Shown here: positions 4,677 through 59,664 of the stretch, one piece after another
Layout: each line of letters starts with the position of its first letter
Numbering within the stretch: position 1 is the stretch's first letter
DNA from: Bispira polyomma
Taxonomy: Eukaryota
Direction: 5' to 3'
Length of the DNA stretch: 64,000 bases
Assembly (NCBI GenBank): GCA_965649765.1
Contig: OZ287757.1
Span: 53,258,001-53,322,000 of the forward strand
Position numbers and translations under genes: made by a program
The notes under the pieces: model-generated
Seen by the model: the letters and a program-made list of their open reading frames with translations, nothing else
The model's database searches: none
What the model was told of the DNA's origin: nothing

Positions 4677-5963
4677 ATGACACCATCATCAGTAGAGTCC
4701 ACAATGGATCTTATCACAGTGCCAACTGAAGACTTCTCACTTCCAGAAATAAGTAGCAGCAGCAACGAGACCTCTCTGGCTTGGGAGGAAAATGACAGTA
4801 CAATCTTTGTTCAGGATGACCGTCCATATTGGGAGTACGGTTACCCATACAGCAACCCGTCAGTGGCAGACACGTTCCTTGACTACAGTCAGACTGTAGT
4901 CTTAAGCTTTCTTGGCATTATGCTCAATACAATCGCTCTGGTACTCTTGTTCAAGGTCTCAATGAAGGGCAAGACATCTTCTGACATATTTCTAATGTCT
5001 CAGCTCTCATTTGACCTGGGCAGTTCCATCACTGCTTTGTTCTGGGCCATAGGAAAGGCATGGGAACCACAGCTCTTCAACAGGGACATCCCGTTGAAGG
5101 TCCTCTGTATTGTCTGGTATTCGCAGTTCATCCAGTTGTTTTTTTCAAACATGTCCATTCTGAACTGCACCCTGCTCACCCTTGAGAGGTATGCCAAAAT
5201 AGCTTTCCCCATTATGCAGCGTATATGGATGTCTCCCAAAAAGGCCAAACTTGTACTACTGGTACTGGTCTGTTTCGTCATTCTGCATAGAATCATTGTT
5301 GATGTCTTGTTTATCGATCTCAACGGGGGACTGTGCAAATGGAGCCGAACCATGTCCGATGAACTCTCCATGGCACTTCAGCTGTATAACTTCACCATAG
5401 TCACTGTTATCCCCATGGGAATCTTTGTGTGGTGTTACAGTCACATGTTGTTGATCTTGCACAGAAGGCGTAATCAGATTGAGCCGGGGACAAAAGACAC
5501 TGCCATGGCATTTAAACTTTCCGCATCTCAATCGAATCCATCTAGTGGCGATCAGGGGCCAACTAAAGCTAAATGTAACAAATCATTTGGTATCCACCTA
5601 CAGGTACATCCGCAAGGCGGTCATTCTAGTAATCACTCTTCATCCCAAGGAAAACAACTATCCAATCATCGAAGTATACAGAGAGGCAAAGCAACAGCGG
5701 GTAAACTTGCCCATGCTGAGCGAAATCTATTCATTACGGCCTTGCTGGTGAATGTTTCCTTTATAGCCAGCAATGCTCCCATCCGACTTTACTTTTTGTT
5801 TATAACCACTGGCCTTCTTCAAAACCACTACAGGGGAGCAGGCTACAAGTTCATGATTTCACTTATTTACCTGAATTACTGCTTTCACCCAGTCATTTAT
5901 GCTTTTACCTTGAAGAAGGTGAGGGATAAACTCATGTTTTGGAGGAAAAACGCAAGGTGGTAG
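4677..5963 (+). CDS. Rhodopsin-like (class A) 7TM GPCR, copy 1, 428 aa, single coding exon
   Basis: Seven hydrophobic segments; TM3 LTLERY, TM5 IP..CY, TM7 NYCFHPVIY, basic helix 8 (TLKKVRDKL); Cys at top of TM3 and in ECL2; N-glycosylation sequons in the N-terminus (NET, NDS). In-frame TAA at 4653 fixes ATG 4677 as the earliest start. Splice-acceptor-like tatttcag ends at 4633. Confidence 0.93.
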   Translation: MTPSSVESTMDLITVPTEDFSLPEISSSSNETSLAWEENDSTIFVQDDRPYWEYGYPYSNPSVADTFLDYSQTVVLSFLGIMLNTIALVLLFKVSMKGKTSSDIFLMSQLSFDLGSSITALFWAIGKAWEPQLFNRDIPLKVLCIVWYSQFIQLFFSNMSILNCTLLTLERYAKIAFPIMQRIWMSPKKAKLVLLVLVCFVILHRIIVDVLFIDLNGGLCKWSRTMSDELSMALQLYNFTIVTVIPMGIFVWCYSHMLLILHRRRNQIEPGTKDTAMAFKLSASQSNPSSGDQGPTKAKCNKSFGIHLQVHPQGGHSSNHSSSQGKQLSNHRSIQRGKATAGKLAHAERNLFITALLVNVSFIASNAPIRLYFLFITTGLLQNHYRGAGYKFMISLIYLNYCFHPVIYAFTLKKVRDKLMFWRKNARW

Positions 5964-7583
5964 GAAAAAGTACGATAATGTTTGTCTCCAAAAAATCATG
6001 ACATTTTTTTAGTGGGGCCTCAGTAGTTTTTTTCTGCCATGGTCAGATTCGTAGCACCTGGCATGTATGTGCAAAAAGAGTTTGTGGACGTAGTATTGGT
6101 AAAGGGCGGATGGTTTGCGGAGCCAAAAACCATGGAAAACTACAAAACAAAACTGGTTGAAAGTGGGGTTAAACTGAGCTATTGCAGCAGTAAGACATCT
6201 ACAATTGTTATTAGCCGAGCTGTTTCATTTACGAGCCATAAGGAAAGCAGTCAAAGTATAGAGACTATGATCAACGAGCCAAGTTTACTATACAGTGCTC
6301 CAGTTTTACAAAATTCCTTAACAAATTAGGTATTATTCTGCACACCAACAACCTTAGCTCACCCATGGGCGGCTGGAACACTGATTCACAAAAATACACC
6401 TACTTAGCAGAAAAAGACCTACTAAACCTTTTTGATTCTTAAGAAAACTGGTGCTGGGAAATGAAGGAATACATCATTCTATAAAGGCCTAATGTATAAT
6501 TATTTAAAGGAGAGATTCTGCTATACTAACAATTTCCCATTGCAAGGAACTAAAATGAAATATAATGGTAATTTTTTTGTTTATTTACTAGATTGTGGTG
6601 TGTCATATGTGATTTTCCACAGTAAACGCAAAGTATAGGTAAATATATATATATGTAGTTGTCACCAGTAGGCATTTAGTGGGGCTTTGTAAAACAGGGG
6701 CCCAAATACAGGGGTCAAAGGTGTATGGAGTTGGACAAACTCTTATTTTCAGTTAAAATAAGCATTTTATAGTACACAAGAGAGGACTATGGTAATGTCG
6801 AGGTTAATGTTTTACTCTTATCATTCCACAAACAATGACCAGACATCATCATGCCTGGAAAACACTCTGTAAAGAAACATGGAGGTAACAAAAATCTGTA
6901 TGTGCCACGTGTAACATGTATGGGTGGTTTTATGTGTCTTCATGCCATTAATATTAAAACTAGTCTTTACAATGTTATAAATTGTATTGAACATTATATA
7001 TAATATGATAATTTGACATAATCATGATTGTTTCTCTTTTGTATGTGTTTGTGTAGTTTTAATAATATTATAGTAAACAATTAAATTCATAAGAAACTGT
7101 TCAGAACCTATTAATACATGTAAAATATAAGTTTTGTGCAATGTTGTGGTGTACATAATTAGATGTTTAGAATGGTATCAGTTTATGTTTGAAGTTAATT
7201 CCCTAAGATAACAGTTCACTACCTTTTGGTCCTATTGTGTAGTCATTTAGGAAGCTTTATCAGCAAAATAATGAAGTTATAATAAGTGGACAATAAAAGC
7301 AAAACAATCTTGGTGCTACATATTTTAAATGTTGTCACAAAATATGCACCCCTGAGGGAATTTTCCTATTATATACTGCTGACTGTAAATTTATGAAATA
7401 ACCATACATAAAATATTTAAAAATCAGGGGTCGTATTCACAACAAAGTCTTAACTTAATCTCATTTTATCATTTATTTCTCAAATATTTAAGTTAGTAGT
7501 AGTTGTAAGAGCAACGTTAACTATTAGGCACATTAAAAATCTATCGTATCATAATAAATGTATTTTTTTGTCTCTTTCATCTG

Positions 7584-7838
7584 GAGCCACGGTGGCCTAG
7601 TGGTTAGCAGGCATTGCGCTTCACAATCACTGGTTTCCCACCTCTGGGCGGAGTGAGTTCGAATCCTGTCGATGCCTATGTGGGAAAGGTGGTAGTTCCT
7701 TATTGTGGGCCGCTGGTTTCAGTGCAGAACATTCATCAACTGTATGCAGTGTTTCCTCCAGAGTTTCCAACTACCCGTCCCAATATAACCTAAACAGGTA
7801 CTAGAGTGGATGTTAAATATCCAAATTCAATTAAAAAA
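7584..7838 (+). mobile_element. tRNA-derived SINE, family A, full length
   Basis: A box TGGCCTAGTGG, B box GAGTTCGAATC, A-rich tail; 12-bp TSD ctctttcatctg (7572-7583 / 7839-7850). Confidence 0.92.
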
Positions 7839-9146
7839 CTCTTTCATCTGAAATCACATAGCTAGAGACTGACAAGCCTTTGTTCGAAAAATCTGTCTGC
7901 TGTATCATGTCAAACATTAGTAATTTACAAGTAAGTTAGTGCACTGCTTTTATTTATAATCAACTGTTGGTAAAAAAATTAACAATTGCATATCAGGCCT
8001 GAAAAAATTCTACCCGGCAAGAAAATTTTGAGCGTTAAAAACTTTGTATATCCGAGACAGAAATGTCCATCTATAGCTCGGAAGCTTACATTGTGAAAAT
8101 GTCTTGGATGGAGTGGGTTATATTATATCTTCACTGATAAAGGCAAGGTAAGCTAATATGGTGTAATATACAGGGAATATGTGTACACTGTAGATGAGAA
8201 TGAAAGACTTGGTGAAAACAAATCAATGTATGTAGTCAGTGTTTATCTCAGCTAGTAGGCATTGCCTTTTAGCTCATATAATAACGTGGTGGACTTTTAT
8301 GGGACTTTAAGTCCAGTTGATTGCAAGCGAGTTTATTTAAGCTACAGGTTTAGAGAGCTAGGAACAGCTGTCCGAATACTATGCTACTCTGCTTTATAAG
8401 ATCAGTGAGACCAGTCAATGTATCTACCATATTAGTCAGTGTGATTTAGCTGATACAGTGACGTGGTAAACTGTTCTGTGACTAAAGTCCAGTGGAGTAT
8501 AATAGTCTGTAGCAGCTTCCCTTACCTTACATTGCTGTCATTAGGTCACATCAAGACGGTCAGATTCAATGGTGGAAGAAACCAGTACTTGTAAACCACC
8601 GATCAAGTGTTTCCACATCAAGAAACATCGATACAAACACAAAAAAAATGACAGAATAATCTCTATACTTTTTTCAATGTTACTGCTGTGTACTGTCGCT
8701 TTTGGTGTGCAAGCAAGGTATATTTGCTCCAGTATCGCGTCGGCAAGGGCCGTGTCGCGTCGCGCCAGATTCAGTGTGCAATGGGTTTAACACTTAGGAG
8801 ATATTAAGGACACCCTTCATGTTTAAAACACATGTTTAACGTTTTACAATACCGTAACTGCAAAATATGTGTGTGATTATACCTCTACGTTTATAACATA
8901 CGGCAAAGTCAATTCGTTGTAAGAAATCTCTTTTATGTCATTTTGTCCACGTTAGACGGGAATCTCTGATCTTATAACAAACACTAAGTCAGGGATGGTC
9001 ATTTCGATAGGTCATGAATGTGGGACCCAAGCAAAAGTACAAAAGATACATCCTCGATGTTAGTTCACTCTCTCATTACATCTAGGCTGGATCATGCCAG
9101 TTATATTTAGTGTATGCACTTCAGAATCACCTGAGTCAGTATTCAC

Positions 9147-11110: not shown

Positions 11111-11787
11111 TGTCTCATTTAGGGGGGGGGGGGGGTGCATTATATGGCTGCCAAATTTACACCGCTAACAATGGCGGATTAAGGGGGGGTGGGTGGGTGG
11201 GGGGGGGGGGGCAAATATAGCTGCTATGTTTTACACCCCGATCATTAAATGTACCCCTTTATATAATGATAAAATAAGTGAAATTCTCTATTGCACTTAA
11301 GTTTAGGGCATTTTTTTTTTACTTCACCTTGGTTATTTAGACCTCATTTACACTCTATTTAAGTAATTGTGTGAAACAAAAAGTCAATGATTTAAAATTA
11401 CATAACCAATTTGTTTTTGCATTTAGTTAAAAACATGATATTTACAATATTATTTTTAACTTTGATTATACAGTATAAAGTGTGATATTTACAATATTCT
11501 TTAACTTTGACAATACAGTATAAAATAAGTACTTTAATATATATTTTTAAAAAAGAAAAAAAACCAGATATAATAATTATATTATTATATATTAATCCAA
11601 TAACCTGAGGTAGTACATTGACAATAGACCTGCTTGATTCCTGTCTTCCTATCAAAGGTCACCCAATACACAAACAAGCTTAAGGTTGAAGGTCAGAATC
11701 GGGAACCTTCTGATCATCAGACTTATTTTATCTAGTGTGGTTTCAATGAACATATTTAGATAGGTGCTGACATCTTAAATACATTAA

Positions 11788-12043
11788 GGGGACCGCGGTG
11801 GCCTAGTTGTTAGCAAGCATTGCACTTCACAATCACTGGTCTCTCACCTCTGGGTGGCCTGAGTTTGACTCCCGTCGATGCCTATGTGACAAAGGTGGTA
11901 GTTCCTTACTATGGACCGCTGGTTTCAGTGCAGAACCTTGATCAACTGTATGCAGTGTTTCCTCTAGCGTTTCCAACTACCCGTCCCAATATAACCTAAA
12001 CAGGTACTAGAGTGGACGTTAAATATCCCAATTCCAAAAAAAA
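11788..12043 (+). mobile_element. tRNA-derived SINE, family A, full length
   Basis: Same family; poly(A) tail; 11-bp TSD aaatacattaa; paralogous site near 29315 is empty. Confidence 0.93.
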
Positions 12044-12344
12044 AAATACATTAATATGTATTGTAAATATAAAAGTGGGTCCACAGAAGCAATGTAAATG
12101 GTATTCTAATGGCTTAAATAGTGAAAGCTCTTGTCTAAAGAAAGGTTTTGAAATGTTATTGATTGAAATGAATTATTTCATTTATAATATATGTTTAATA
12201 CTTTAAATTAAATATTTTTATTTTGGTATAATATAAATGATCATTTAAAATGTAGGAGCATCTCTTTCAGTGGCCATCTGAGCTGCAATGAATCTGTTTG
12301 TATGCGGTTGTCCAAGGCTCAGATCAAAACAAGGGATCTAAGAA

Positions 12345-20405: not shown

Positions 20406-20742
20406 ATGGCAGCAGGCTGGGGCAAAGTGAAAAACACACTTCTTCGCCCCAAACTACGAAGTGGGCTTCAAGCTGTGTCAGTACTCATCATTCTAGGCAT
20501 TCTAGGCATTCTGATGATGTATACCACGAACACCCAAGTACCAGTAACTAGACTGCGCTATCCCCAGAACAGGAATTCCTTCTATAGCGATCAGAAGGAA
20601 ATATGCCAATATTTTGTGCAACCAATTAAAGTGGACATGAGGATGGGGACCTGGCAGGCCCAGAAAGTCACCACTTCTACTGACAGGGACGACATGGTGT
20701 TTGTTATACACTCCTATTACGATGACAGACCCAGATTACATG
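20406..20742 (+). CDS. Glycosyltransferase family 92 (GALT-1-like) gene, coding exon 1: cytoplasmic tail, signal-anchor and stem
   Basis: ATG in aaaATGG context; basic tail then TM AVSVLIILGILGILMMY; HSYYDDR fits the SAY(Y/F)D.R motif of GT92 proteins; donor G|GTAAGG at 20742/20743 (phase 1); upstream acceptor tgtttcag ends 20268. Confidence 0.85.
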
Positions 20743-21199: not shown

Positions 21200-22230
21200 C
21201 AAAAACAAACAAATGGTAAGCTGATCATTTTTGTACCAGAAGGAGCCAGTGGCACAGGCCCAGCTTACTGAAAGACTCGCTGTTTGTGAAGTCATTTATA
21301 TCTGATGTTGACTGACTTGCCAGACATCATTTATGCATAATGATGACATTGCTGTGATGTGCAACAGTAGCGGATCTATTAACACTATAATTTATTCTAA
21401 CACATAAGCTGTTTGTCATTTTACAGCGTATTACAGGAACATGGTCAACACCCATTTATACATATATACAACTCATACTAACACCAGGGCCACGTCCTAT
21501 ACACATAAGATTTCTAAAACATTATTGAAAGCAACAGTCACTTTGTTAATAACAGAATTTGTATATTTCATCCACAACTGAGAAGTATAAAAATTACATA
21601 TACAGGATTTAGATAGGTTTGGGTACACAGTGTGTCTATGTTCTGGGACCCTAAATATTATTCCTACAATTTTAGTCTGATTAAACCAAATATAATGGGC
21701 ATCTCCACATTGCTTACATATATTTACTGGCTTTTGTAACCCTTTTATAGATGGGCTGAGTAGAACTATATCATCAGCATACATTATGAGATTTTTTAAA
21801 TGATTACTGATGAAGTAGCCAGCTTGGCAATTGTTTAAGAGACGACTCAATCCATCCATGAATATACAGAACAACAATAGTGATAGAATTCCTCCCTGAT
21901 GTACACTATTTTGAATTTTAAAGTTGCAAGAAGTACAGTTACTCCAGCGAATGAAAACATTCTGCATAGTATACCAATAGTGTATGATATGAATAATAAC
22001 TACTGGGGTACCCCGTTTTTGTAACTTTTTAAATAACTTGTCATATCTCATTCTATCAAAAGCTTTAAAAGCATTCATGAAACAGGAAAAGACTGAGGAG
22101 TTGTGTGTATTGTGAAAACGTACAAGTTCCTTTAATACAACTATAGCCATTTCAGTGGTATGATTGGGTTTAAAACCAAACTGATTATCAGTAGTTTGAA
22201 TACAGTTTAACATCCTATTAGGTAAAATAT
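21200..22230 (-). mobile_element. Decayed non-LTR reverse transcriptase fragment inside the GT92 intron
   Basis: ORF 21497-22213: QFGFK, AFKAFDR, VHQGGILS, MYADD; antisense to the host gene. Confidence 0.9.
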
Positions 22231-23639
22231 TTCACTGTGGCACAATGAATGACTTCTGGGCATAAAAGAACCAGTATTCAACTTTAAGGCAGATATTTCT
22301 TTCCTCATTTTTAACTACCACATTTTCAGTTTTCATATTTCTTTACAATATTGTGGGACGTTAATATGTATAGGTGTGACTAGGCCATTAGAGAGATTTC
22401 GTACTCATACTCCATTACATCAATTTCCGGAATAATGTATAATATGGTACGTAGTGGTCACACTTTTCTATTTTATAAGTGTTTAAGCCATATTATTATA
22501 CAAAGATTGTTTAAGTAAATGGTAAAATATATATATATATATATATATATATAACATCATCTTGCTTAGTTTTAGTTTCTAGTTCTGTGTAGTAGAAATA
22601 CGACAGGCCTGTTGACCACAGAAGGCAAGGTCAAGCATTTCTATGTGTCTGTTTATAGGTCCCACTTTTAGCTGTGTGAATGAACGTACCACAAAACTTC
22701 AACTTCTTTGATGTCTGACTTTTCTCTGCAACATATTTTTTACGGGTACGTTTTGGGTACATGGCATATATATCATGGCAAACGTAGCACAAAAACTCTA
22801 ATATGCAGGATATCAGCAAAAAAAATTCCTTAATCTATGTTAATAAAGTTCAATAATTAGAGCCAAAACATATTAGTATATTTGTATACATCAGCTATGC
22901 ATATCAGATCTGTATGAGTAAATAATCGCTGAACGATAGATTTCATTTATTCCGAACATTATACTAAAAGTTGTACATGTTTGTATTAAAGAAGTCCTTC
23001 AATATGAACATCAACCATTTATGATAGCTTACGTATACACATAAAAATATTCTATTCTATTTTATACCACCTTTTCCAACTCATATGATAAACTAATGAC
23101 AATAACTAAAAGTGTATGCAAGTATAGATGTGTAAAATGCAACCAAGGTGGATGGATGTAATTTGAATTAGATGAAAACCAGTATAGGATGGTTGGCCTA
23201 CAATAAATCTACCCTCAACTTTCCCATGTCTGGGTCGACAGTCAAACCCAGAACTGCAACAAAAGATGCAAGAGTGTTACCCTCATGTGTAGCAAATTGA
23301 AATTGCACATTTTCTGAGTGGACAATAGGGAAAATGTGAACCCTGATTATATATAACAAGGGAGTAGGTCATCACAACAACAAATTATAAGCTTTGAGTC
23401 TATTTTTCAAACAGGATAGTATCGGGATAAAAACTACATTATGGGGTAAGACTCTATTCTTTCAATTTGAACTTTAGAGTGATGGAACTTTTGATGTCTG
23501 TATGTTTTTATATATGTGCAATGTATAGGTTACTACATCCACTTATATATTACTGGAGATGTAGTGAATTATTATAAGTAATAGATGTCACCGATAACAT
23601 CATATTAGTTATATCTTTTTGCTGTGTTTTATGCTCCAG

Positions 23640-24739
23640 GCAACCACTTCTTGAGACTCTTCCTCGTGATGCAGACAAAAAGCTGGCAAGTTTTGAGGAA
23701 AAAAGCTTTTTGTTATTTGTGGACAGAAGGCAGCTCACACCCAGTGATCACTACTTCTGTGTTTAAGAGACTGGATATTCGTAGATTCGAATCTGTTGTC
23801 AACAACAGGACCTACAACAGCATTTTGATGAGCTGCCCGATTCCCATCAAATTGAAATACAGGATCTCACATATTTCCTTCAACACCATCAACTGCAGTG
23901 GTGAACTGACATCGTATTTACCGGTGACATACATTAAGCAGCAAGACACCTTTACTCATACCTTTGGTCAGTGTATCGCCAATGGAATGTCATACGGTTT
24001 CATGGGTGACAAGCAGGCCCGCTGGATGGTGGAGTGGATAGAAATGAACAGGCTGTTTGGTATCACTGAATTCAATTTGTACAATGGCACTATGCAAGTG
24101 AGTGCCAATTACCAGAAGGTCCTAGAGTTTTACCAAGACAAAGGCATCTTAAGGTTATACCATCAGGTGCCCCCTGTAGTAAATCTCGATCCAACACAGT
24201 TATTCACAGCCAAAATTGCCAAGAGAACCGGATATAATGACTGTCTTTACCGCAACATGTACCGCTACCAGTACATTGTCTCCATCGATCTAGATGAAAT
24301 AATTGTTCCTGCAGGGAATTATACCAACTACACACATATATTGCAGCAGCTGGACCTAAAGAATGTGGCAACTATTAAAATTGGAAAACAACGATACCCC
24401 CAGAAAATATTAAATCAAGGACAGAATGTCAGTCACAAATTTGACCTAGTGACAACCAAATTCATTAGGGAAGTGTCAGAAGGAAGAACCAAGCATTTCT
24501 TCAACCCTCGTCTATGCCTTGCAGGCCGCACGCATGGGTGCATGGAAAATTTGGACAATGCTAAGAATATTAACGCCAAGCACACAAGCAGGTTAGCCAA
24601 GTTAAATCATTACAGGGAGGAGTGTGGGAATTGTCAGGAGAAGTGGGAATCAATGACAGAGAACAGAAACATATACAGATTTGCCACGTCACATTTTTAC
24701 AAACAGGTTCAATCTATCTGGAATCAACTTGACATATAA
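23640..24739 (+). CDS. Glycosyltransferase family 92 gene, coding exon 2 (catalytic domain); joined protein 478 aa
   Basis: Acceptor ctccag ends 23639; phase matches exon 1 (G+GC = Gly; 337+1100 nt = 479 codons incl. stop). Motifs EWIEMNRLFG, NDCLYRNMYRYQYIVSIDLDEIIVP (DxD) and LNHYR are typical of GT92/DUF23. AATAAA at 24856. Confidence 0.9.
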
Positions 24740-27001: not shown

Positions 27002-27032
<31 letters not shown>

Positions 27033-28517: not shown

Positions 28518-28770
28518 GGGGACGCGGTGGCCTAGTGGTTAGCAAGCATTGCGCTTTACAATCACTAGTTTCTCACCTCTTGGTGGCGTGAGTTTAAATC
28601 CCGTCGATGCCTATGTGGGAAAGGTGGTAGTTCCTTACCGTGGGCCGCTGGTTTCAGTGCAGAACCTTGATCAACTGTATGCAGTGTTTCCTCCAGCGTT
28701 TCCAACTAACATTCCCAATATAACCTAAACAGGTACTAGAGTGGATGTTAAATATCCAAATAAAAAAAGA
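28518..28770 (+). mobile_element. tRNA-derived SINE, family A, full length
   Basis: Same family; 14-bp TSD acgtacc(g/a)taatat; paralogous site near 8890 is empty. Confidence 0.93.
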
Positions 28771-36440: not shown

Positions 36441-37056
36441 GCAGGCAAAGTGAGTATATGTGCTAAAATATAATTTTGTAAATGCAGCATAATAAACATT
36501 CACAGCCTTTTAAGCAGGCTTCATTCATGTATACACGTAATGTTACCCCATTTATATTTTAACATATCGTATAAAATAGTGTAGCTTCATTTTTATTATT
36601 CTTCATAGAATTAAAATTTACTACAAAATGGCGCGTTTGTCATCTAGATCAGTTGTGTCTCTCACATCACATTCAGGAACAGAATTAGGGAAAATGAATT
36701 AAAAAAGAGCATGTAACATTGTTGTTAAAGGGGAATAAAGGACACATTTTGACAATATTTTTCATGTAAACATAGTTTGCGAAGGTTGGTAACTCTGTAG
36801 ATTGGTAGTGTTGCTTATTATTTTTCTGCGTTTTAGGATACAAATATACAGCTAAAATTCATTTAAATGCATCCTTAAAATGCACTGAGATAATATTGTA
36901 ATACTCAATAACAATCTACATTTTTATTTGTATATTTATTTCAGACTAATGAAAGTTTAAGAAGGCATATCAGAATTAGGAGAGAAAACCGCAACAACGT
37001 TAGTGATATCAAGCATTAACAGTGACCGGAACAGTAGCTGTACCGCTGAATATACA

Positions 37057-38315
37057 ATGGAAATGGACCTGACAACTACGGAGGAGGGTGTTAGAAACAG
37101 CACCATGGATTTTTTAGCAGGTGTCCATTCAAATAAGAATGAGTCCTCCGAAGTAAGGGACAGCTATCAGTATTCCCCAACTATAGAAGAAAAATTAATT
37201 GATTATTCAGCCTCAATGGCCTTAAACTGTACCGCTGCAGTGCTCAACATTATTGGTTTGATACTCTTGCACAAAGCTTCTAAAAAAGGCAAAACCTCGT
37301 CCGAACTGTTTCTGATATCCCAATTGTCTTTCGATCTGGTTAGTTCTTTAATGGTATCCTTGTGGCCTGTAGGAAAGGCTTTTCATCCACAAAGCTTTGA
37401 AGATACCTTTGCAATGGAATTGGTCTGTAGCCTATGGTACTCTCAGTTCATCCGTCTTTTCTTTGCTAATATGTCAATATTCAACTGCACTTTACTGACC
37501 CTTGAAAGGTATGCTAAAATTGTGTTCCCAATTATCCACAGAATGTGGATGTCCCCTGAGAAAGCCAAAATCATTTTATTGTCAGTCATGGGTTTTAGCT
37601 TTTTCAAAGGAATTATCAATAATATTTTACCATCTGGTTTAACTAGTGCTAGGTGCGGTACCCGAGCATTTATGTCAGAATATGGAAAATTAGGGTTGCA
37701 GATGATGAATTTTGTTATTGTCACCGTTATACCCATTGCTACCTTTGTCTTCTGTTATAGTCACATGCTGATTGTTTTGCGCAGGCGTCAACTTAAAATA
37801 GATCCAGGCAAAAAAATCCACAGGTCCAACAAAAGTCAAGGCCCCAAGACAGACCATTTAACTGTTGCGTCAACAAATACGTCCCATACAACAGATATTC
37901 CCTCAGTGGAACAGACCAACCTTACTTCCCTCTCAGTTGCTGGGCACAACTTGGAATCCACTGATAATGTACCCTCAGTAAATATGAGTGAAGGTTATTC
38001 CAGTGCACACACTGACCCAGGCAAAGAGGTCAAAATCAATAAAAAGAAAAACACAAAGAAAATACTGGCTAACGTTGAAAGAAATCTTTTTATCACAGCA
38101 CTGTTGGTTAATATTTCCTTTATTGCCAGCAATGCTCCTGTTCGATTGTACTTCATCTTGAGGACAGTAGGCATCATAAAAAACCACATTAGAGGACCTG
38201 GATTCAAGTTTATGACTGTGCTCATTTACTTGAACTATTGCTTTCACCCAATCATATATGATTCACTTTGAAGAAGGTCAGAGATAAGTTGTACTTCTGG
38301 AGGAAAAAAGTTTGA
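37057..38315 (+). CDS. Class A GPCR, copy 2, with a 1-bp deletion after TM7 (truncated receptor, young pseudogene or assembly error)
   Basis: Paralogous to copies 1 and 3. First in-frame ATG after the TAA at 36958 is 37057 (the ORF-track GTG start is not a likely eukaryotic start). At 38260/38261 'tat g-a ttc act ttg aag' vs copy 3 'tat gcc ttt acc ttg aag' gives a stop at 38271; the ancestral frame continues FTLKKVRDKLYFWRKKV to TGA at 38313-38315. Confidence 0.88.
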
Positions 38316-39734: not shown

Positions 39735-40128
39735 GGTTATCACAGGCATCAAAATGAAAATAGAGCCAAACAGCCAATCCTTAAGGTCCGACCAAGGTCA
39801 AGATTACAAGTGGACTATTTAACTGCTGACATGCATCATGTCATAGATGTTCTATCGAGGAAACATACTAAACTTACCTCGATGCACACCAACAAATGTA
39901 AAGGAGTAACATCTTAGCACTGTTGGTTAACATTTCCTTCATGCACAGCAATGCACCTATTCCATTGTATTTCATTTTTCGGATAGTTGGCATTATCAAA
40001 GCCCATATTTGAGGGCCTGGGTTTATGGCAGTGCTGATTTATATAAACTTTTGCTTTTACCCAATCATATATGTTTTTACTTTGAACAAGGTTGGAAATC
40101 AGCTGTATTTTTTGAAGGAACAAATTTA
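39735..40128 (+). pseudogene. GPCR pseudogene, C-terminal half (ICL3, TM6, TM7, helix 8)
   Basis: From ~39917 reads ALLVNISFMHSNAPIPLYFIFRIVGIIKAHI*GPGFMAVLIYINFCFYPIIYVFTLNKVGNQLYF, matching copy 2; TGA at 40010. 39740-39880 aligns loosely with the ICL3 DNA of copy 3 (59122-59268). Not in the ORF track. Confidence 0.88.
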
Positions 40129-40290
40129 ACCCTCCCACACACCTTTGGCCACTTGTTAACTGTTCCCTGAACCCTCCCACACTCCTTTGGCTACTTGTTG
40201 ACTGTTCCCTGAACCCTCCCACACTCCTTTGGCTACTTGTTGACTGTTCCCTGAACCCTCCCACACTCCTTTGGCCACTTGTTCACTGTT
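40128..40290. repeat. 42-bp minisatellite, ~4 copies
   Basis: Unit aaccctcccacactcctttggctacttgttgactgttccctg; explains the repetitive minus-strand ORF 39914-40264. Confidence 0.95.
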
Positions 40291-41237: not shown

Positions 41238-41239
41238 AG

Positions 41240-41930: not shown

Positions 41931-43734
41931 AGGTTTAACCATTATTTCCTATTGGGCGCATTGTATGTACAGTAGAACCTCTATTATACAACCCTCTTTT
42001 ATTATCAGAGTATTCAATTTTACGAACTCAGATTCACTTGTCTTGTTATGTGATTTCACTTCTATGGTACAGACCAAGTTTATGCAAACTAATTCTTACT
42101 CTCCCAAGATGTCTGTAAAACGGAAATTCTACAGTATATCATTGTATCTTTTACAGTTTACAGCCTTTTAGTTTTTCCCATAAATGGAACCACCACATGG
42201 AGGTCACTGTATATAGATTTCCTTGTGCAATAAAACAAAAATATAAACACTTTTAATTATTGTTTTTCTTTACAAAAGTCCCTTTAATTGTTGACACTCC
42301 TGCTATTTTTATTCATGTCATGGCTTACGCATGGCCTCTCAATGCTGATGACTATTGTTTTCCATTTTCATCTGAAATATGACGAAACAAAAAGGGTCTA
42401 CATTAATGTTTTTAAATATTTTAACAGTCCTACACCTCAAAATCCTATCTGTAGAGGCAGGCACAAATCCTTTTTTTATCAACCTTAAATTAACCTTAGA
42501 AAACAAGCAAATACTTTTTATACCACACTCATGAGGCCAGGAAACTTGCAAATGCTTTGAATAAGCACACATACATGCAGTCAAGGTTTATTGTTAAAGA
42601 GAACACCCTCCTCATTGCATGATTGTGATATATTTAAACTACTGAGTTTTTGGAGCATTGATGATCCAGGTTGTTAATATGACTAGGAAATTAATAAGTA
42701 ATTAAAAATGTGTAATATATGTTTAAATATTTTAATCTTAATAACAAATTATAAAATTAATAACTAATCAGGCAATTTAAATGATTAAATCCAATCCAAT
42801 CCATTGTTGAAATATTAGTCAAATGTAAAACTAATGATACAATTAGCTCTAGAATAGCCACACACACACAGCCTCTTGTGCAGAAGCTAAGGGATAATGT
42901 CAAAACCCACAATTCTAAATAGAACCACCCAGAAAACCACCCCGAGCAAGATAAAAATAAAGGGTTCTCCACTAATGAAAGTCAGACAAGGCTTTCTTGT
43001 TACGACAATTTTCACTGGAGAGTTTAACACTGTCAATTCACAGAAAACAACTTTCTCTTACCAAAAAATAACCCAATACTAATAATGATTCTTTTTGCAA
43101 ATATTCTCCTGATACATACTGGGAAATATATTAAACAGTATTGACATAATAATTCATGGTGATGAGACTTCACAAAGTAATGATAGTATTTATAAACCAA
43201 CTCTGACAATGCCTGATATTGATAAAACTTTACCCTTGTAATGATAGTAAATTATTTTGATACTTCCCTAACGTGACAGAAAACCACTTTAAAAATTAAT
43301 AATGCTTGTTGCAGTAAGGGAGTATATTATTCAGCTGATAGCAAAAATTTTAAAGATTCTTATTGACAAACAACAATAATACTGAAACAGTAGTTACTGG
43401 ATCTGAAGGCTGTCTATATTAGACCACATCAGATAATAGGACTTCAGCATCACATCTGTCACACACTGGTGACAAACAGACTGATACTATCACATGCCTA
43501 AATGTAAAAGATCATGCAGCAAATACTACAGACAAGACTTTGAGTTTTTAAGATGCAACTGGTCAAGAGAACACTTGTTCTAATAATGTAAACAATTCCT
43601 TTAAAAAACCCAGTTGGGTCAGCATTGGAGACAGATCTTTGATAAAGTCTGGTGCTGTAGTAGCGTGTCGGACTATTTACACAAAGAGTACACATAATTG
43701 TATGTGTCAGCAAGTCATGGTCTGTACTAATGAA

Positions 43735-43993
43735 TTTGAATTTTTTTGAATTGGGATATTTAACGTCCACTCTAGTACCTGTTTAGGTTATATTGGGACG
43801 GGTAGTTGGAAACGCTAGAGGAAACACTGCATAAAGTCGATCAAGGTTCTGCACTGGAACCAGCGGCCCACAGTGAGGAACTACCACCATTCCCACATAG
43901 GCATCGACGGGATTGGAACTCACACCGCCCAGAGGTGAGAGACCAGTAATTGTGAAGCGCAATGCTTGTTAACCACTAGGCCACCGCGGCCCC
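43735..43993 (-). mobile_element. tRNA-derived SINE, family A, full length, reverse orientation
   Basis: Reverse complement of the family; 13-bp TSD ctgtactaatgaa (43722-43734 / 43994-44006). Confidence 0.93.
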
Positions 43994-44899
43994 CTGTACT
44001 AATGAAATGAAGTCTTACAAGGTGCCCCAATCAGTGGAGAATCAGAAAGTCATTAAGACACCCAAATACTGAAACCCCAGACAAATGAGCCAACACAAAA
44101 GGTTTAGGAAAAAGGTAATGAAAAAGAAATGTAATTAACTGAAGCAATAGAAATGTAAAAAGAGGAATCTACATTACGGTTGACATACCCTCACAGAAAC
44201 TGGTGCATTCATGAATGCCATAAGTGAAGATGCTGTTAAAAACAAAACCCTACCTCAGCAATGGAGAAATCAGCAGTTTCCAAAATTCTACACAAAGGCG
44301 GAAACAGCTTCTGGTGACCGTCATATTATTTCTTTTATCTACTTCACGGACATAAAATTGATCGTAGGAACCTCAGTCAAGCTTTGAGTAATCTGATAAC
44401 AAATTAACTGCCACTCTTTATAATAGTATATATGCCCTAAATAATGTTACCATACAACCAAAGACTCGAACTTTAGTTCACTGTTAACTAAACTGTAAGT
44501 CAAAGATACTAGGAAAATTCATGACAGCAAGCCATTTTTACAAAACATTTGGATATTGCCTGATAAAGTGGTGTGGTCGTTGTAGATTATTCAGCAGATA
44601 CAAAACTCGGTATGGAACAAATACTTCATCACCAGTAACATTCTGACACCTGGTCGCTATACCATTTTAACAGTAACTAAAACACATACAAGACAATTTT
44701 TTTCATTTTAAATAGAAAGATTTTCTGAAACAAACAGTTTCATACAATTACATACCCCCTCTAGCTTCCAGTTGATACATGCACCTTGCCTGATGTGGAT
44801 AGGTGGTGGAGTTGGGTTTTATCTCAAAAGCAAAATTGATTAAAAAAACATCTCCACTCTTGACTACACCACCTTCGAAAACTTTATCTAATCAGTCGG

Positions 44900-50249: not shown

Positions 50250-53200
50250 ATATATATACTTCTGAAATAATTCTGGAAACCAAACATAAGCTTCCTTCCA
50301 AAAGCGTTTTAAATTTCTAGAACATCCAAATATATATTTTTTGGCCACAATAAAAACAACATTGTTGGGGAAAAAATCTCCTTCCATCTCCAATAAAACA
50401 AACCCTGTACTCATTGGATTTAGAGCTAAGTACAAACCAAAGAATTGTTGAAGCTAAGATATTAAGTCTTTCCAGTACACATATTGCAGAAGTAGCAAGA
50501 GGAAATATTACTTACATTGATTTTGTTTAAATAAGCCCTTGTACCCAAAATTGTGTGAATAATTCTGTATTGAAACCAAAATAAAATCATTTCTTCTTAG
50601 GGTTTTAAAACATACTTTGTAAATATTGTTCCAATCTTGTTTACTATTATCAGTATTTAGAGTATCAATCCATCTATTTCTCAATTGATAGTTATCATAT
50701 TGTTGATTCATTAATTCATAAAAATGCCGACTACCTTTATTAGGATTAAGCAATAATTTCAAATATGAAGGAAAGATTGGTCTGTCACAAGGATATTCCT
50801 TTATATCAAATTTAGCTTTTTAAATATTGTTTAATTCTAAAATATTCGAGAAAATTTGTTTTCACTTTATATAATTGGCATATTTGCTCCAACTCCATAA
50901 TGCGACCATCATGCTTTAAAAGATACTTTTTAAACATTGTTTAATTTAAAAATATTCTAGAAAATTTGTTTTCACTTTATATAATTGACATATTTGCTCC
51001 AACTCCACAATGCTACCATCATGATTTAAAAGATCAATGGGGTACATATTCCTGCATCATACCAATGTGGTAGGAATAAAGGTTCAATAGAAATTAGTTA
51101 TACCACATATGATTTGATATAGTATCACCCTGATTAAATGTAATTTACCCAAGTAACTTAGCCCAGGCTAGCAGAACTTCCTTCCAAAATGGGTTGGAAA
51201 TCCTGGTGATAGAAACAAACGTTTCATCCAGGTGAATTTTTGAGACATTATGAAAGATTCTGTATCGATCATTTTTAGTCATCCATGCAAGTAATCATTT
51301 GTAATTTGGTTATGGCTTATTTTATTGGGCTTGTAATCCCACAAAAAGGAGTAACGTAACTGATTTATGCTAGTTATTATTTGCTTATCAGGAGATAGTG
51401 GGAAGCAAATATATGATTTAGGCTACTAATGACAAAAAGTTTTGAGCACAATAATTTTACCAAGTGGTGTCAAATTTCTTCTTTTCCACCTGTTTAAAAT
51501 TTTATTGATTTTATTTAGGATTGGACTAAAATTCATGGTGGCCATTCTATCCAAGTCAACCGAGAATTGTATTCTTAGCAAGTTAAAATCAGTGGAGCCC
51601 CAGTTCAAATTCTCCAAAGTATTGTACTTATCATGACAATGTTTCTTTTTCCCCAGCCATATTATTTTGGTTTTATCAGAGTTCACTTTGAGTCCATATA
51701 GAGAGCCAAAACTTTCTAGAGTGTTCAATGTTGCCAAACGACTGTCCTTACTTCCATCAAGGAATATTGTAGTATCATCAGCAAACTATGTGATTTTATA
51801 ATTATGCTCTTTGATAATAATTCCTTTAATGCTGATGCTATTATCAACCATGAGAAATAAAACCTCAGCACATAGTAAAAATAGATATGGAGCTATAGGG
51901 TCTCCTTGTCGACAACCCCCCTGTAAGTCAAAAAACTTTGACAAGAAACCTGATTGGAGAATTGATGCCTTTACATTATTGTTTAAGGCATTTACCCATT
52001 TACAGAAAATATTCCCGAATTTATAGAAATCAAGTACACTTGAATGAAAAACCCATGAGACTGAGTCAAATGCTTTTTGAAAGTCAACAAGCATAAGTAG
52101 ACCCTGTAAATCGTTCTTCTCAATATAATGCATGATATCATAAACAAGTCTTGCACTCTCCTCAATAAACCTTCCACTAATGAATCTAGTTTGGGATTTT
52201 GATATAAGTTTATTTAGTACCTTCTTTAAATGCAATTGTGGCAGAGGCAAGTTTATATAGAACCGAAAGCAAAGAGATCGGACACCAATTCTTCAAAAAT
52301 TCTTGGGGTTTATCACCTTTTGGTAAACAGCTGATGATATAAGTTCTTGGCGATACTGACATTCCACCACTCATATAGGCATAGTTCAATGCTTTTATTG
52401 ATGAAATATTTTAATTTTCCCCAAAATAAGTCTGGTCAATTTCTTTAATTTCTAATTCTCCCTCAAGAATTATCGATTCCAAACTGGTCAGTTTTCTCAT
52501 ATTTTTCCCTTTGAATATAGCATCGATGTTTGTTCTTCAGAAGAATGACTTTTTTTTAGAGAAAAGTGCTGAACAGAAGTTTTAAACCTCTTCTAAAATT
52601 TCTTTCCAATCAGTAATTTGCCGACCATCCTCAAGTTTAAAACTTTTTATTGTTTTTTCAGTATAGTTATATTTTTGAAAAGGGCAAAAAATATGGAAGG
52701 CTTCTCTCCTTCATTTAGCTATTGTGTTCTGGCTCTGATAGCGATATCAATGATAGATTTTTGTCTGATATTCTCCAATTCTCTTTTCTTGTCTTCTAAT
52801 ATATCTGGTATACCTGTATTGTTATTCTTTTCAAGAAAATCTATTTCACTTATTAATCTATTTTCAAGTTCATTTGCTTGCTTTTTACGATTGGATGCAA
52901 ATTTTATTGTCTCGCCTTTAATTCTTAGCAGTAGCATTTCCACAAATTGGCCGTCATTGATAGTAAAATTAATATCACTGTCCGGAATTGTGTCTAAACA
53001 TTTTAAATTATAAATTGGGAGAGCATATTTATATTTATCATCTTGAATAACAGAATTGATGAGATTAAAGTATTCTTTGTCTTTTAAGAGGCTACAATTA
53101 AATTTCCAAAGTCCCTTTCCTCGTTCAAACATATTCAGTAGTATTTTAATTTAAACACTCAAGTGAATACTTCTACAGCTTGGATTAATACAACAACCAC

Positions 53201-55640: not shown

Positions 55641-56744
55641 TAGTTTTTTTAAATAGCGCTTTTGATCATTTGTCAGTAATTCCATTTGAAGGGAATCTTT
55701 GTAACTATCCAATAATAGGTATTTTATAATAGGAATTTCAAAAATACGTAACAAATTGTTTTTAAGCCATCCAGGCGATTTATCATTATTAATAATACAA
55801 CATAATAATTGTGGGATTTGTGAAGTATTAAATTGATGAAACATCTTTTAAGGTGCTGATTCTTCCACAAAGGGGTAGTCAATTAACAGAAAAAACGACA
55901 AGGTGCTTCAGTCGGGGAAGGCAAGTCTGAAATTGTAGGTTTTGACATTACTTTCTTAAACTAGTTAGGATATGTTATTACCTAACTTATTTTAACAAAA
56001 TAGTTTATTCCACACAGCTAGAGCAGCAACTGTGGAAACTCATTGATGTGAAGTGGTGATTACTAACTTATAGGTTACAACTACTTACCACTATTCTTGT
56101 AATTTACATACATTGTCATCGTGAAATAAGGAAGCGACTATGAGCCTCTGTAAATCAATCAAAACAATGCTTGTGGTAACTCATTATAACTACATTGATA
56201 TGCAAGGAAAATTAAAACAAGGGAGTGAAGGGAAAGTATTAACTTTTGTATGTACTTTTTATTTAAAAATTCTTTCAAACATATTTACTTATTCTTTTAC
56301 TTAATATATTTTTGATTAAGTGTTTCATAAAGATACCATAGTTAAACAATCCTTAATACCAATTCAAAACGTGCCCATGTAAGTCATGTAAATAAGGTTA
56401 CAATTATTTTTTTTAAATACATGTATGTATTTTTTATATGTTTCGATTGCTTGATTATTACAGTAATGTTACTTTTTAAATAATAGTTTCATTTTGATAT
56501 ATAATGTTTAAGTATTTAAACTAGGTATGTTTGTATCAGGCAAACGAGTATATAGGAGTTGTGATAATAAGAATGGCTTGGTACATTTAACCAAAAAACA
56601 ACAACTTTAAAACTGCATAAGTAACCCTGAAAGCAATATTCATGAATTTGACCAGCAATTTTAACCCGGATCTTAACCATTCTTGTAAAATTGTCATTCC
56701 AAAACCTATGCTATAATTTGCAAGTTTCACTCTGAAATATTCGT

Positions 56745-57196
56745 AACTACAGGTTTTACCATGACATATTATTAACTACAGGTTTTGCAATGACATATTA
56801 TTAACTACAGGTTTTACCATGACATATTATTAACTGCAGGTTTTACCATGACATATTATTAACTGCAGGTTTTACCATGACATATTATTAACTGCAGGTT
56901 TTACCATGACATATTATTAACTACAGGTTTTACCATGACATATTATTAACCGCAGGTTTTACCATGACATATTATTAACTACAGGTTTTACCATGACATA
57001 TTGTTAACTACAGGTTTTACCATGACATATCATTAACTGCAGGTTTTACCATGACATATTATTAACTGCAGGTTTTACCATGACATATTATTAACTGCAG
57101 GTTTTACCATGACATATTATCAACTACAGGTTTTACCATGACATATTATTAACTACAGGTTTTACCATGACATATTATTAACTACAGGTTTTACCC
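56745..57196. repeat. 29-bp minisatellite, ~15.5 copies
   Basis: Unit aact(a/g)caggttttaccatgacatattatt, head-to-tail with no spacers. Confidence 0.97.
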
Positions 57197-57419
57197 TGAA
57201 GCACAAGCCATTCCACCAGAGATGTCTTCCAAACCAAATGAGCAAAGATACTGAATTAGTCTAAAAATTAAATTACTCTAAAAGTGCAGGATATCAAGTT
57301 TCTGATTGGCCCAAATTTAGTCTTCCCTAAAACTTTAGAGAAGTAACTTCTTATATCAACATATGGTTCAACGAATCCATGACTACTACAAGTTGATACA
57401 ACAATATAAATATACATTG

Positions 57420-58115
57420 AGAGGAATGTTGCTGAGTATTCTTCAAATATGAACAACATCACCATTGATAGTATTATAAACATAACAATTAATTTTTAAC
57501 AAACATTCTTTTATATCAGGATGACCCCTTTGATTTAAATGACTATTAGTATAACCCTAACTAAATAATAAATTCACAGATTATTCAGCACCATTGATCT
57601 TAAACTGTACTGCTGTAGTGCTAAACATCATTGTACTGGTACTCTTGCACAAAGCTTCCAAAAAAGGCAAAACATCATATGAACTGTTTCCGATATCTCA
57701 ATTGTCTTTATCTTGCCAGTTCTTCATTGGCAGTCATTATGGGCTATAGAGCAATTCACAGAATTTGGATATCACCTGAAAAAGCAAAAGTCATTTTAAT
57801 GTCAATCATGGGTATTAGCATCAATATTATAGTACTTTTAGCGCATTTGTCTAGTTTTTGCTAATATTTAACTGCATTTTATTGATACTTGAAAGGTATA
57901 CTAAAATAGTGTTCCCAATTATCCGCAGAATTTAGATATTACTTAAGAAGGCCAAAATCATTTTAATGTCAGCCATGGGTCTTAGCTTTTGCCAAGGTGT
58001 CATTAATGATGTTTTGCCATTTGGTATCACCAATAGTAGATGCAGCAGCCTACCATTTCTGTCAGAAAATGAAAGTCCAGGGTTGTAGATGTTGATTTTT
58101 TTATATCCCCATGTG
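57420..58115 (+). pseudogene. GPCR pseudogene, N-terminal half (N-terminus to start of TM5), with stops, frameshifts and an internal duplication
   Basis: DNA matches copies 2/3: gattattcagc..ttaaactgtactgctgtagtgctaaacatcattg (TM1), cttgaaaggtatactaaaatagtgttccc (ERY), gggttgtagatgttg (TM5 with stop). Confidence 0.9.
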
Positions 58116-58416
58116 ATGCACTGTGATTAAAATACTACCAGTTGCCTGTAAATATAACAAAGCTATATTGCGTTGCAATAAAATGTACCAGTTGCCACCT
58201 GTGCGTTATTCACATGCTAATACAAACACTTTAAATGCATTGGAATAATATTCTAAAATAATCACCAACAAATTATGTTGTTTTTTTCATTTATTTCAGA
58301 CCACTGATAGTTCAAGAAGGCATTTTAGAATTAAGAGAGAAAACTACAGTTTTTTGGGGACATCAAGCAATTACAGTGACTGTAACAATACATGTGCATC
58401 TGAATATCCTCAAGAA

Positions 58417-59664
58417 ATGGAACCAACAACTACAGAGAATCTTACAAACAGTACCATAGATTTTGTAGAAAATATCCATTCATCTGAGGAAGAGTCCTCC
58501 GACACCTATCAGTATTTCCCAACTGTACAAAGAAAATTCAGTGATTATGCAGATTCAGTGGCTGCAAGCTGTACTGCTGCAGTGCTAAACATTATTGGTC
58601 TGATACTCTTGCTGAAAGCTACTAAAAAGGCCAAAACATCGTCCGATCTGTTTCTGATCTCTCAATTGGGGTTTGATGTGGCCAGTATTGTAATGGTATG
58701 GTTCTGGGCTGTGGGAAATTTTTTCAAACCACGAAGCTTTGAAAATAACTTTGCAATGGAATTGTTGTGTAGCCTATGGTACTCTCAGTTTGTCCAAATA
58801 TTCTTTGTTAATATGTCAATATTTAACTGCACTTTACTGACCCTTGAGAGGTATGCTAAAATTGTGTTCCCAATTATTTACAGAATTTGGATGTCCCCTG
58901 AGAAAGCCAAAGTTATTTTATTGTCAGTCATGATTTTTAACTTTTGCCAAGGTGTCATTGTTAACGTTTTGCCATTTGGGCTCACCAATGGTGGATGTGG
59001 CACCCGAGCATTTATGTCAGAAAATGGACAGGTAGGGTTGCAGATGTTGAATTTTATTATTGTCATAATTATGCCCATTGTCACCTTTGTGTTCTGTTAT
59101 AGTCATATGCTGGTGTTTTTACACAGACGTCAACATAAAGTAAATCCGATTAGCCAAGTTCCAAATTCAAATCAAAATCAAGGCTCCAAGTTGGATCATT
59201 TAAGTGTTGTATCAACAGATACGCGTCATATCAGAGATATCCCCTCTGGAGAACAGACTAAACTTACCACACTATCAGTTGCTGGCCAAGAATTATCCAC
59301 TGATAATGTGCCCTCAGTTCAAACGAGCGAAGGTTATTCTAGTGCATACACAGTGCAAACTGACAGAAGCAAAGTAGCCAGGAATACTAAAACGAAAAAC
59401 ACCAACAAAACAATGGCTAATGTTGAACGAAATCTGTTGATTACAGCACTGTTAATAAATATTTCATTTATTGCCAGCAATGCTCCTATTCGTTTGTACT
59501 TTATCTTTAGATTAGTTGGTGTTATAAAAACCTATATTAGTGTACCTGTATACAGGGTTATGACCATGCTCATGTACTTGAACTATTGCTTTCACCCAAT
59601 CATATATGCCTTTACCTTGAAGAAGGTCAGAGATAAGCTGTTCTTTTGTAAGAAAAGAGTTTGA
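58417..59664 (+). CDS. Class A GPCR, copy 3, intact (415 aa from first ATG; frame open back to the splice acceptor at 58299)
   Basis: Same motifs (LTLERY, SNAP in TM6, NYCFHPIIY, TLKKVRDKL); closest to copy 2 including flanks. Acceptor ttatttcag ends 58299 and no stop occurs between 58300 and 59661. Confidence 0.92.
   Translation: MEPTTTENLTNSTIDFVENIHSSEEESSDTYQYFPTVQRKFSDYADSVAASCTAAVLNIIGLILLLKATKKAKTSSDLFLISQLGFDVASIVMVWFWAVGNFFKPRSFENNFAMELLCSLWYSQFVQIFFVNMSIFNCTLLTLERYAKIVFPIIYRIWMSPEKAKVILLSVMIFNFCQGVIVNVLPFGLTNGGCGTRAFMSENGQVGLQMLNFIIVIIMPIVTFVFCYSHMLVFLHRRQHKVNPISQVPNSNQNQGSKLDHLSVVSTDTRHIRDIPSGEQTKLTTLSVAGQELSTDNVPSVQTSEGYSSAYTVQTDRSKVARNTKTKNTNKTMANVERNLLITALLINISFIASNAPIRLYFIFRLVGVIKTYISVPVYRVMTMLMYLNYCFHPIIYAFTLKKVRDKLFFCKKRV

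Follow-up and report, generated by a model that had tools for sequence, protein, structure and literature searches.

An asparagine-6.48 subfamily of class A GPCRs in a tandem gene array of Bispira polyomma

The window analysed here, a stretch of 64,000 nt from Bispira polyomma (GCA_965649765.1; contig OZ287757.1, positions 53,258,001 to 53,322,000), contains three long open reading frames (ORFs) that match the Pfam 7tm_1 profile, all of them on the + strand. Copy A (4677..5963) is an intact class A GPCR gene with a single coding exon, as judged from its ORF, the Pfam match and a structural model; its 428 amino acids comprise seven transmembrane (TM) helices and helix 8, and an alternative start methionine is possible at 4704. 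Copy C (58417..59664) is an intact gene of the same single-coding-exon type, with 415 amino acids counted from the first methionine. Copy B (37057..38315), delineated by its ORF and by tblastn and blastn matches, encodes the seven-helix region up to Y7.53 and is then frameshifted. Two decayed fragments lie on the same strand. One spans TM6 to helix 8 (about 39872-40133; tblastn, blastn), carries one in-frame stop and a two-codon deletion, and has identities of 54-73% in tblastn and of 77% to copy B in blastn; the other reaches from TM1 to the start of TM5 (about 57543-58104), contains several stops and frameshifts, and has a DNA identity of 72% to copy B. A pyrimidine-rich tract with a TTTCAG end (4614..4633, + strand), 43 nt upstream of the copy A ATG, is likely the splice acceptor of an intron in the 5' UTR. 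The TTTCAG sites 112 nt upstream of the copy B ATG (36925..36944, +) and 117 nt upstream of that of copy C (58280..58299, +) are likely acceptors as well, and the same type of signal is found at the paralogs L002 and L003. Since the frame of copy C is open across its TTTCAG site, this gene may possess a short upstream coding exon.

The reading frame of copy B breaks between 38260 and 38261, where 1 nt has been deleted; the ORF stops at 38271 with the terminal residues YDSL, and helix 8 is encoded in a different frame that runs to a stop at 38313-38315. The contigs of three DNA runs, possibly with the assembled sample among them, cover intergenic DNA in 3/3 cases and all contain the identical letters at this site, with neither a gap nor an indel row, and have 30 letters to its left, one short of the bridging rule. 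They break 30 nt before the deletion because copies B and C have 34 nt in common. With the same letters in 3/3 runs, an assembly error is not favoured as the source of the frameshift; copy B is probably a recent pseudogene or null allele.

The class A assignment made in the earlier note was borne out by 7tm_1 scores of 72.4, 71.9 and 69.4 bits for the three long ORFs (cut-off 30.5). Membership of the Srx or Srw families was rejected, as the Srx scores of 15.6 and 16.3 bits fall below the cut-off of 23.8, copy C gave no Srx match, and Srw yielded no match at E ≤ 0.1 among the Pfam results for the three copies. The AlphaFold model of copy A (mean pLDDT 70.6) contains seven TM helices and helix 8, and Foldseek aligned it with opioid, somatostatin and CCK receptors at TM-scores (by target) of about 0.7-0.8 and identities of 14-19%; peptide receptors are the closest solved structures, and the matches to the PDB are weak (E about 1e-7). 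The TM3-ECL2 cysteines (C144 and C220) are invariant in 26/26 family sequences, and the anchors N1.50, D2.50, R3.50, P5.50 and P7.50 are each present in 25/25 members, with P6.50 in 24/25.

The earlier note had described class A micro-switches as replaced in every copy. The motifs that it listed (ERY, the TM3 and ECL2 cysteines, SQLxFD, a TM4 devoid of tryptophan, FIASNAP and HP(V/I)IY) indeed occur in all three copies, and W6.48 and N7.49 are changed; most switch residues, however, are canonical in all three, namely D2.50, S3.39, I3.40, E3.49-R3.50-Y3.51, P5.50, Y5.58, E6.30, F6.44, P6.50, N7.45, P7.50 and Y7.53. The true departures are W6.48N, C6.47S, N7.49H, the loss of W4.50, and L2.46Q/A2.47L, to which we add two that had been overlooked: L3.43C and a C3.25-R3.50 span longer by two residues. 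When 25 members from the genome of the window and from other assemblies are compared, N6.48 is universal (25/25, against 0/25 for W6.48), W4.50 is absent from the aligned column (0/25), and the kept switches include F6.44 (24/25), Y5.58 (23/25), Y7.53 (21/25) and S3.39 (20/25). Position 7.49 is occupied by histidine in 18, aspartate in 4 and asparagine in 3 members, so that HPxxY is not fixed and could not be upheld as a family-wide trait; SNAP is limited to the subclade of the window copies. Of the sodium-site residues, D2.50, S3.39 and N7.45 are mostly kept. R6.52 is near-invariant (22/26 sequences). Among the three copies, identity is high in TM3 (0.81), ICL2 (0.75), TM6 (0.75), TM7 (0.72) and helix 8 (0.73, effectively copy A versus copy C), and low in the N-terminus (0.39), TM4 (0.46), ECL2 (0.44) and ICL3 (0.31). 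The divergence noted earlier for these latter regions is therefore real; the description of the intracellular parts as nearly invariant was too strong for identities of 70-80% among the three copies and of 0.46-0.51 for ICL2, TM6 and helix 8 over 15 members.

Phylogenetically, the family is one clade nested within a widespread group of invertebrate orphan receptors for which we coined the label NQSxxD. Tree support is 100/99 for the family, 100/99 for the family together with the NQSxxD group, and 94/93 for the position of the family inside it; two other trees gave the same topology. In agreement with the orphan status proposed earlier, there was no grouping with canonical amine or peptide receptors in trees containing 7 and 13 of them, sampled from 30 fetched from the same genome and covering part of the receptor types. 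The NQSxxD group takes in sea-urchin proteins automatically named 'kiSS-1 receptor-like', 'GPR54-like' and 'galanin receptor 2b-like', and probably overlaps the echinoderm surreal-GPCR/OR-like sets. Family and group have in common Q2.46 (20/25 members; 148/152 outside matches), N3.42 (23/25 members), the T/ERYxxIxxP motif, and a cysteine-to-R3.50 span of 27 (25/25 members; 146/154 outside matches), which is 25 in 30/30 canonical receptors; Q2.46 was thus inherited from a large, older group. In contrast, the NQSxxD proteins keep W4.50 (141/154), W6.48 (129/150), N7.49 (135/147) and L3.43 (134/154) and mostly carry glutamine at 6.52, whereas the family lacks W4.50 and has N6.48, H/D/N7.49, C3.43 (21/25) and R6.52. 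As W4.50, W6.48 and N7.49 persist in the ancestral group, the changes at the switches can be assigned to a single branch.

As the earlier note had anticipated, the genome holds further paralogs and pseudogenes: at least 24 family loci, of which 11 look intact and 13 are doubtful or broken. Twelve lie in tandem, with broken copies among them, within 480 kb of C10 (53.15-53.63 Mb). A large segmental duplication between C8 and C10 was considered and not seen, the matches being gene-sized or repeats. Eight lineages are older than the split from another organism, their partners, 41-58% identical, coming from other assemblies that may lie inside or outside the lineage; four of the eight are apparently still clustered. 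After these partners, the next matches in the protein library score 163 rather than 210 bits and belong to the NQSxxD group. With these eight lineages, much of the family is old and stable, and the earlier portrayal as expanding does not hold for this part.

Mean entropy over 26 sequences was 2.31 bits at 27 pocket positions, which were assigned by generic numbering rather than from model coordinates and are uncertain in upper TM3 because of a two-residue insertion, against 0.79 bits at 20 G-protein-facing positions. Of 11 duplicate pairs tested, leaving L009/L011 aside, nine were unsaturated, with dN/dS values of 0.27-0.47; the pair L001/L004 was saturated. Three independent pairs gave 0.32 for the pocket, 0.12 for the G-protein face and 0.26 for the remaining TM positions. 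Later duplicates are under purifying selection in every region, most visibly at the G-protein face, and the pocket value of 0.32 gives no sign of positive selection in these crude counts (three pairs, no site model). A dN/dS of 2.5 for L009/L011 was not accepted as positive selection, as L011 is truncated at its 5' end, lacks a start methionine and yields small counts. Pocket identity is 0.38-0.81 between recent duplicates. Relative to the remainder of the TM region, the pocket is better kept in two of seven ortholog pairs (0.77 and 0.80 versus 0.68 and 0.73), equal in one and lower in four.

We consider it rather probable that these proteins are G-protein-coupled chemosensory receptors that are activated without a tryptophan toggle and whose lineages respond to different ligands; both the chemosensory role and the altered activation mechanism we infer from sequence. 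The conserved cytoplasmic face suggests that the receptors couple to G proteins. The ligand would bind in an extracellular pocket, where R6.52 would likely serve as its anchor and would suit an anionic group, by analogy with R244(6.51) of GPR139, whose role itself stems from a docking model (PMC5430874). A polar network of N6.48, N7.45 and (H/D/N)7.49, replacing the tryptophan, would relay the push to F6.44, I3.40 and P5.50; TM6 would then swing outward, and Y5.58, Y7.53 and R3.50 would lock the active state. Paralogous lineages would read different ligands while having one G-protein type in common. MrgD offers a precedent, since it signals without W6.48 via a polar 6.48-7.45 bond that also supports basal activity (PMC9287403). 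Three points speak against this chemosensory reading: the family is small, with about 24 loci as opposed to hundreds in published expansions, signs of positive selection did not emerge, and the retention of eight lineages, with a pocket kept better than its TM surroundings in two of seven pairs, fits fixed endogenous ligands too.

Receptors for endogenous signals such as lineage-specific peptides, lipids or internal pheromones, with old lineages tied to fixed ligands and a few branches duplicating and dying, are indeed a possible but less probable reading. It would account for the eight two-organism lineages, for the purifying selection and for pocket identities of up to 0.80 between orthologs, and the long ICL3, the two to three glycosylation sequons per intact copy and the proximity to solved peptide receptors are in line with it. 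However, these structural matches mirror what has been solved, orthology with the sampled canonical receptors is lacking, 13/24 loci are doubtful or broken, and the pocket diverges between recent duplicates. That the genes are non-signalling or decaying, their motif changes reflecting loss of function, is very improbable: the broken loci would agree with it, but not the low dN/dS of the G-protein face or the retention of N6.48 and of the DRY and tyrosine switches across lineages and organisms.

Nor is it likely that the receptors are largely ligand-independent or gated by ions or protons, the loss of W6.48, of W4.50 and of L3.43, the inactive-state lock, weakening the inactive state and a histidine beside D2.50 conferring pH or sodium dependence. 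The fixation of N6.48, the prevalence of C3.43 where outside matches have leucine, and that of H7.49 would fit, as would the basal activity of MrgD. Yet histidine, aspartate and asparagine all occur at 7.49, D2.50, S3.39, N7.45 and E6.30 are kept, the diversified pocket suggests that ligands matter, and the oyster CCKR2, which carries HPXXY, is an ordinary peptide-activated receptor (PMC6219549). Also improbable is a rebuilt switch in which Asn6.48, His7.49 and Asp2.50 would form a proton- or sodium-sensitive relay that, with a lock weakened by Cys3.43 and an anchor for anionic cues at Arg6.52, would yield pH-tuned marine chemosensors of high basal activity.

Literature searches on HPxxY or N6.48 in GPCRs returned nothing on such a family, and the clusters returned by the Atlas were all of a generic 7tm_1 kind, with members from mixed phyla. 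In its array structure, and in favour of a chemosensory role, the family resembles the lineage-specific class A expansions of Lophotrochozoa (Capitella, PMC4085046; Nath et al. 2025, PMC11886862), candidate chemoreceptors encoded by tandem 7tm_1 genes with full-length, truncated and pseudogenised copies, variable extracellular halves and no orthology with canonical receptors; echinoderm candidate chemoreceptors exhibit the same tandem, variable pattern, likewise with pseudogenes (PMC7042368). In PMC11886862, DRY and NPxxY are reported as the sole motifs in common and the TM3-ECL2 disulfide as often lost, whereas our family keeps both cysteines, has a changed N7.49 and possesses cross-species orthologs. 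HPIIY, SNAP, CNAP and NQS are absent from one supplement of that study, whose figures and Zenodo sets may include the family.

The biology is ordinary: invertebrate genomes often carry arrays of this kind, and for each type of substitution there is a precedent. Of the class A receptors, 68% have W6.48, and the Y1R variant W276A still signals (PMC12814323). A non-tryptophan, often polar residue at 6.48 occurs in the functional receptors CCR6/7/9/10 and CXCR6 (Q6.48), MrgD (S6.48) and the purinergic group (F6.48, D7.49) (PMC9287403, PMC6037435); all of these are unrelated to the family by descent, and MrgD has lost the sodium site, the P5.50 contact and the acidic 3.49, all three of which the family keeps. 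H7.49 is found in the peptide-activated lophotrochozoan CCK/sulfakinin receptor Cragi-CCKR2 of oyster and in Aplysia CCKR candidates (PMC6219549, PMC12535377), but Cragi-CCKR2 is a conserved neuropeptide receptor whose orthology with the family is unsupported, in a tree without a CCKR sequence. The family is a clearly bounded, unnamed receptor subfamily, and its natural H/D/N variants at 7.49 over a fixed N6.48 provide a test set for activation without a tryptophan toggle.

The receptor genes of the window belong to a genuine, as yet unnamed subfamily; gene arrays of its kind are well known, and the motif set of this subfamily is distinctive, yet has precedents. Three long class A copies, A (4677-5963), B (37057-38271) and C (58417-59664), lie on the forward strand; all three open reading frames pass a check against Pfam 7tm_1, and the motifs that the earlier note had read from them are present in each one. 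B and C are 66% identical, and A shares 46-49% with both. Copy B has lost one nucleotide between 38260 and 38261, directly past Y7.53, which puts its helix 8 out of frame; the site has identical letters in contigs of three out of three DNA runs, with a left flank of 30 bases, one short of the bridging rule. Upstream of A, B, C and the paralogs L002 and L003, a pyrimidine tract with a CAG end suggests a spliced 5' UTR followed by a single coding exon. The start codon of L002 and L003 is gone in B (36990-37000) and C (58345-58355), which start about 22 codons downstream of that position; copy A has a four-codon upstream ORF (4666-4680), whose stop overlaps its ATG, and a second in-frame Met at 4704. 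Two decayed receptor fragments (~39872-40133 and ~57543-58104) are adjoined by tandem repeats (40128-40290, 42 bp x 4, and 56733-57199, 29 bp x 16, respectively).

Searches of the B. polyomma genome (1.035 Gb, 75 contigs) with copy A and with a divergent paralog, together with a tblastn scan that covered the window plus 360 kb of retrieved sequence, bore out the anticipated paralogs with at least 24 family loci, a lower bound, as it comprises the best-scoring candidates only and C10 (OZ287757.1) 53.43-53.63 Mb lay outside the tblastn scan. Eleven loci look intact (A, C, L002, L003, L006-L010, L012, L015), three are doubtful (B, and L013 and L011, which are without a usable start Met), and the remaining ten are broken or only partly present. 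Of the at least 24 loci, twelve are located on C10 at 53.15-53.63 Mb; the remainder occupy other parts of C10 (four) and contigs C8 (three), C11 (two), C5 (two) and C3 (one).

A 15-member profile run against 1.84 billion representatives retrieved 11 full-length family members from outside this genome (210-554 bits; next match down, 163 bits); the short member-like fragments P0030 and P0034 were excluded from the counts. These ENA proteins are 28-58% identical to their best B. polyomma match. P0001, P0020, P0168 (cluster mate of P0019) and P0169 (cluster mate of P0022) have one and the same value for the longest contig, and their B. polyomma partners lie within 370 kb; the receptor cluster has thus probably been retained in another organism. 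The 154 non-family outside hits (137 from the profile search, 17 from another) are overwhelmingly receptors of the NQSxxD (NQS) type, our label for a widespread invertebrate orphan group; four of these carry names, all of them sea-urchin 'kiSS-1/GPR54/galanin receptor-like' entries. An IQ-TREE phylogeny under a mixture model (46 rows: 27 family, 12 of 164 NQS-type and 7 of the 30 canonical amine/peptide receptors of this genome) recovered the family as a single clade (100/99), with family plus NQS at 100/99 and the family within NQS at 94/93; a 70-row quick tree had the same outcome. Eight B. polyomma lineages pair with outside proteins and several duplications are private to this genome (L002-L005, i.e., B, C and two more; L006/L007/L013; L009/L011; L015/L017), and the family is thus an old set of lineages on which local birth and death is superimposed. 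Separate tandem arrays of NQSxxD receptors on C11 (L025-L027, L050; 53.65-53.73 Mb) and C3 (L055-L060; 70.08-70.20 Mb) retain W6.48 and have lost P6.50 (CWVWNQ, CWVCNQ); the C3 array has VKY instead of ERY.

Residue numbers and position sets follow generic numbering and were checked by alignment with canonical receptors rather than against model coordinates. Among 25 members (14 from B. polyomma, 11 outside), N1.50, D2.50, R3.50, E/D3.49, P5.50 and P7.50 are invariably kept, as mostly are F6.44 and P6.50 (24 each), Y5.58 (23), Y7.53 (21; F in 4), S3.39 (20) and N7.45 (16; D in 6). Changes on the family stem comprise N6.48 (25/25; W in 129/150 outside hits and 30/30 canonical receptors), the missing W4.50, C3.43 (21/25; L in 134/154 outside hits), L1.49 (24/25) and R6.52 (22/25; Q in 102/150 outside hits). 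Position 7.49 varies (H 18, D 4, N 3), as does 6.47 (C 13, S 6, T 4, G 2). Two features are inherited: Q2.46, present in 20/25 members and 148/152 outside hits where 30/30 canonical receptors have L, and the 27-residue span from the Cys to R3.50 (25/25; 146/154 outside), which measures 25 residues in 30/30 canonical receptors. In the paralogs L007 and L013 neither tyrosine switch survives (N5.58, F7.53), and N7.49 has been regained. An AlphaFold model of copy A displays seven helices plus helix 8, a hairpin in ECL2, a disordered N-terminus and ICL3, and a TM3 break at residues 149-150 whose position fits the insertion; Foldseek ranks opioid, somatostatin and CCK receptors highest (14-19% identity).

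Selection on the family is purifying, with the extracellular side freer. Over TM1-TM7, nine of 11 pairs have a Nei-Gojobori dN/dS of 0.27-0.47; of the other two, one is saturated, and L009/L011 (2.5) involves a truncated copy. In three independent pairs, regional values are 0.15 (TM3), 0.23 (TM5), 0.27 (TM6), 0.46 (ECL2), 0.49 (ECL1), 0.52 (N-terminus) and 0.58 (ICL3), and the pocket stands at 0.32 whereas the G-protein face is at 0.12 (entropy 2.31 versus 0.79 bits). No positive selection was seen at the resolution of these counts by pair and region; that the receptors are non-functional is very improbable.

We consider ligand-activated, G-protein-coupled chemoreceptors to be the most likely reading, one that we hold with some confidence. 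R6.52 may anchor an anionic group of the ligand, by analogy with R244(6.51) of GPR139, whose role is described from docking (PMC5430874). A polar N6.48-7.45-7.49 network could stand in for the Trp and relay the signal to the P5.50-I3.40-F6.44 and tyrosine switches, which are intact; the proposed relay resembles S6.48-S7.45 of MrgD (PMC9287403). Receptors for endogenous ligands are a possible, clearly less probable alternative. Many of the canonical receptors L061-L090 are likewise single-exon, and missing introns are therefore weak evidence for chemoreception in this genome. Gating by ions or protons with high basal activity appears unlikely.

Nath et al. 2025 report tandem, partly pseudogenised class A expansions in 238 lophotrochozoan genomes, with an annelid mean of 245 genes (PMC11886862), and Simakov et al. 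count 372 peptide-receptor-like GPCRs, for the most part in tandem, in Capitella (PMC4085046); echinoderm surreal/OR-like sets are tandem, single-exon and under purifying selection (PMC5442662, PMC7042368). A non-Trp 6.48 is common (Trp conservation 68%; PMC12814323), e.g., Q6.48 in CCR6/7/9/10 and CXCR6 and F6.48 together with D7.49 in purinergic receptors (PMC6037435), and both oyster CCKR2 and candidate receptors from Aplysia have HPXXY (PMC6219549, PMC12535377). PMC8557429 has no bearing on the family. Literature searches brought up no account of the subfamily; the figures and Zenodo sequence data of PMC11886862 may include it.

Inside the receptor cluster lies a likely two-exon glycosyltransferase family 92 gene (20406-20742 and 23640-24739, forward strand): exon 1 encodes a type II membrane anchor, exon 2 matches PF01697 with 91 bits (nearest relatives 52%), and the phase-1 splice sites are compatible. 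Decayed LINE-type retrotransposon fragments were identified by RVT_1 matches on the reverse strand (21497-22231, 51786-53150) and judged by eye on the forward strand (34665-35183, 63478-63849). An interspersed repeat of 250-270 bp is present in four copies about 90% alike (7580-7840, 11785-12057, 28514-28784, 43725-43995).
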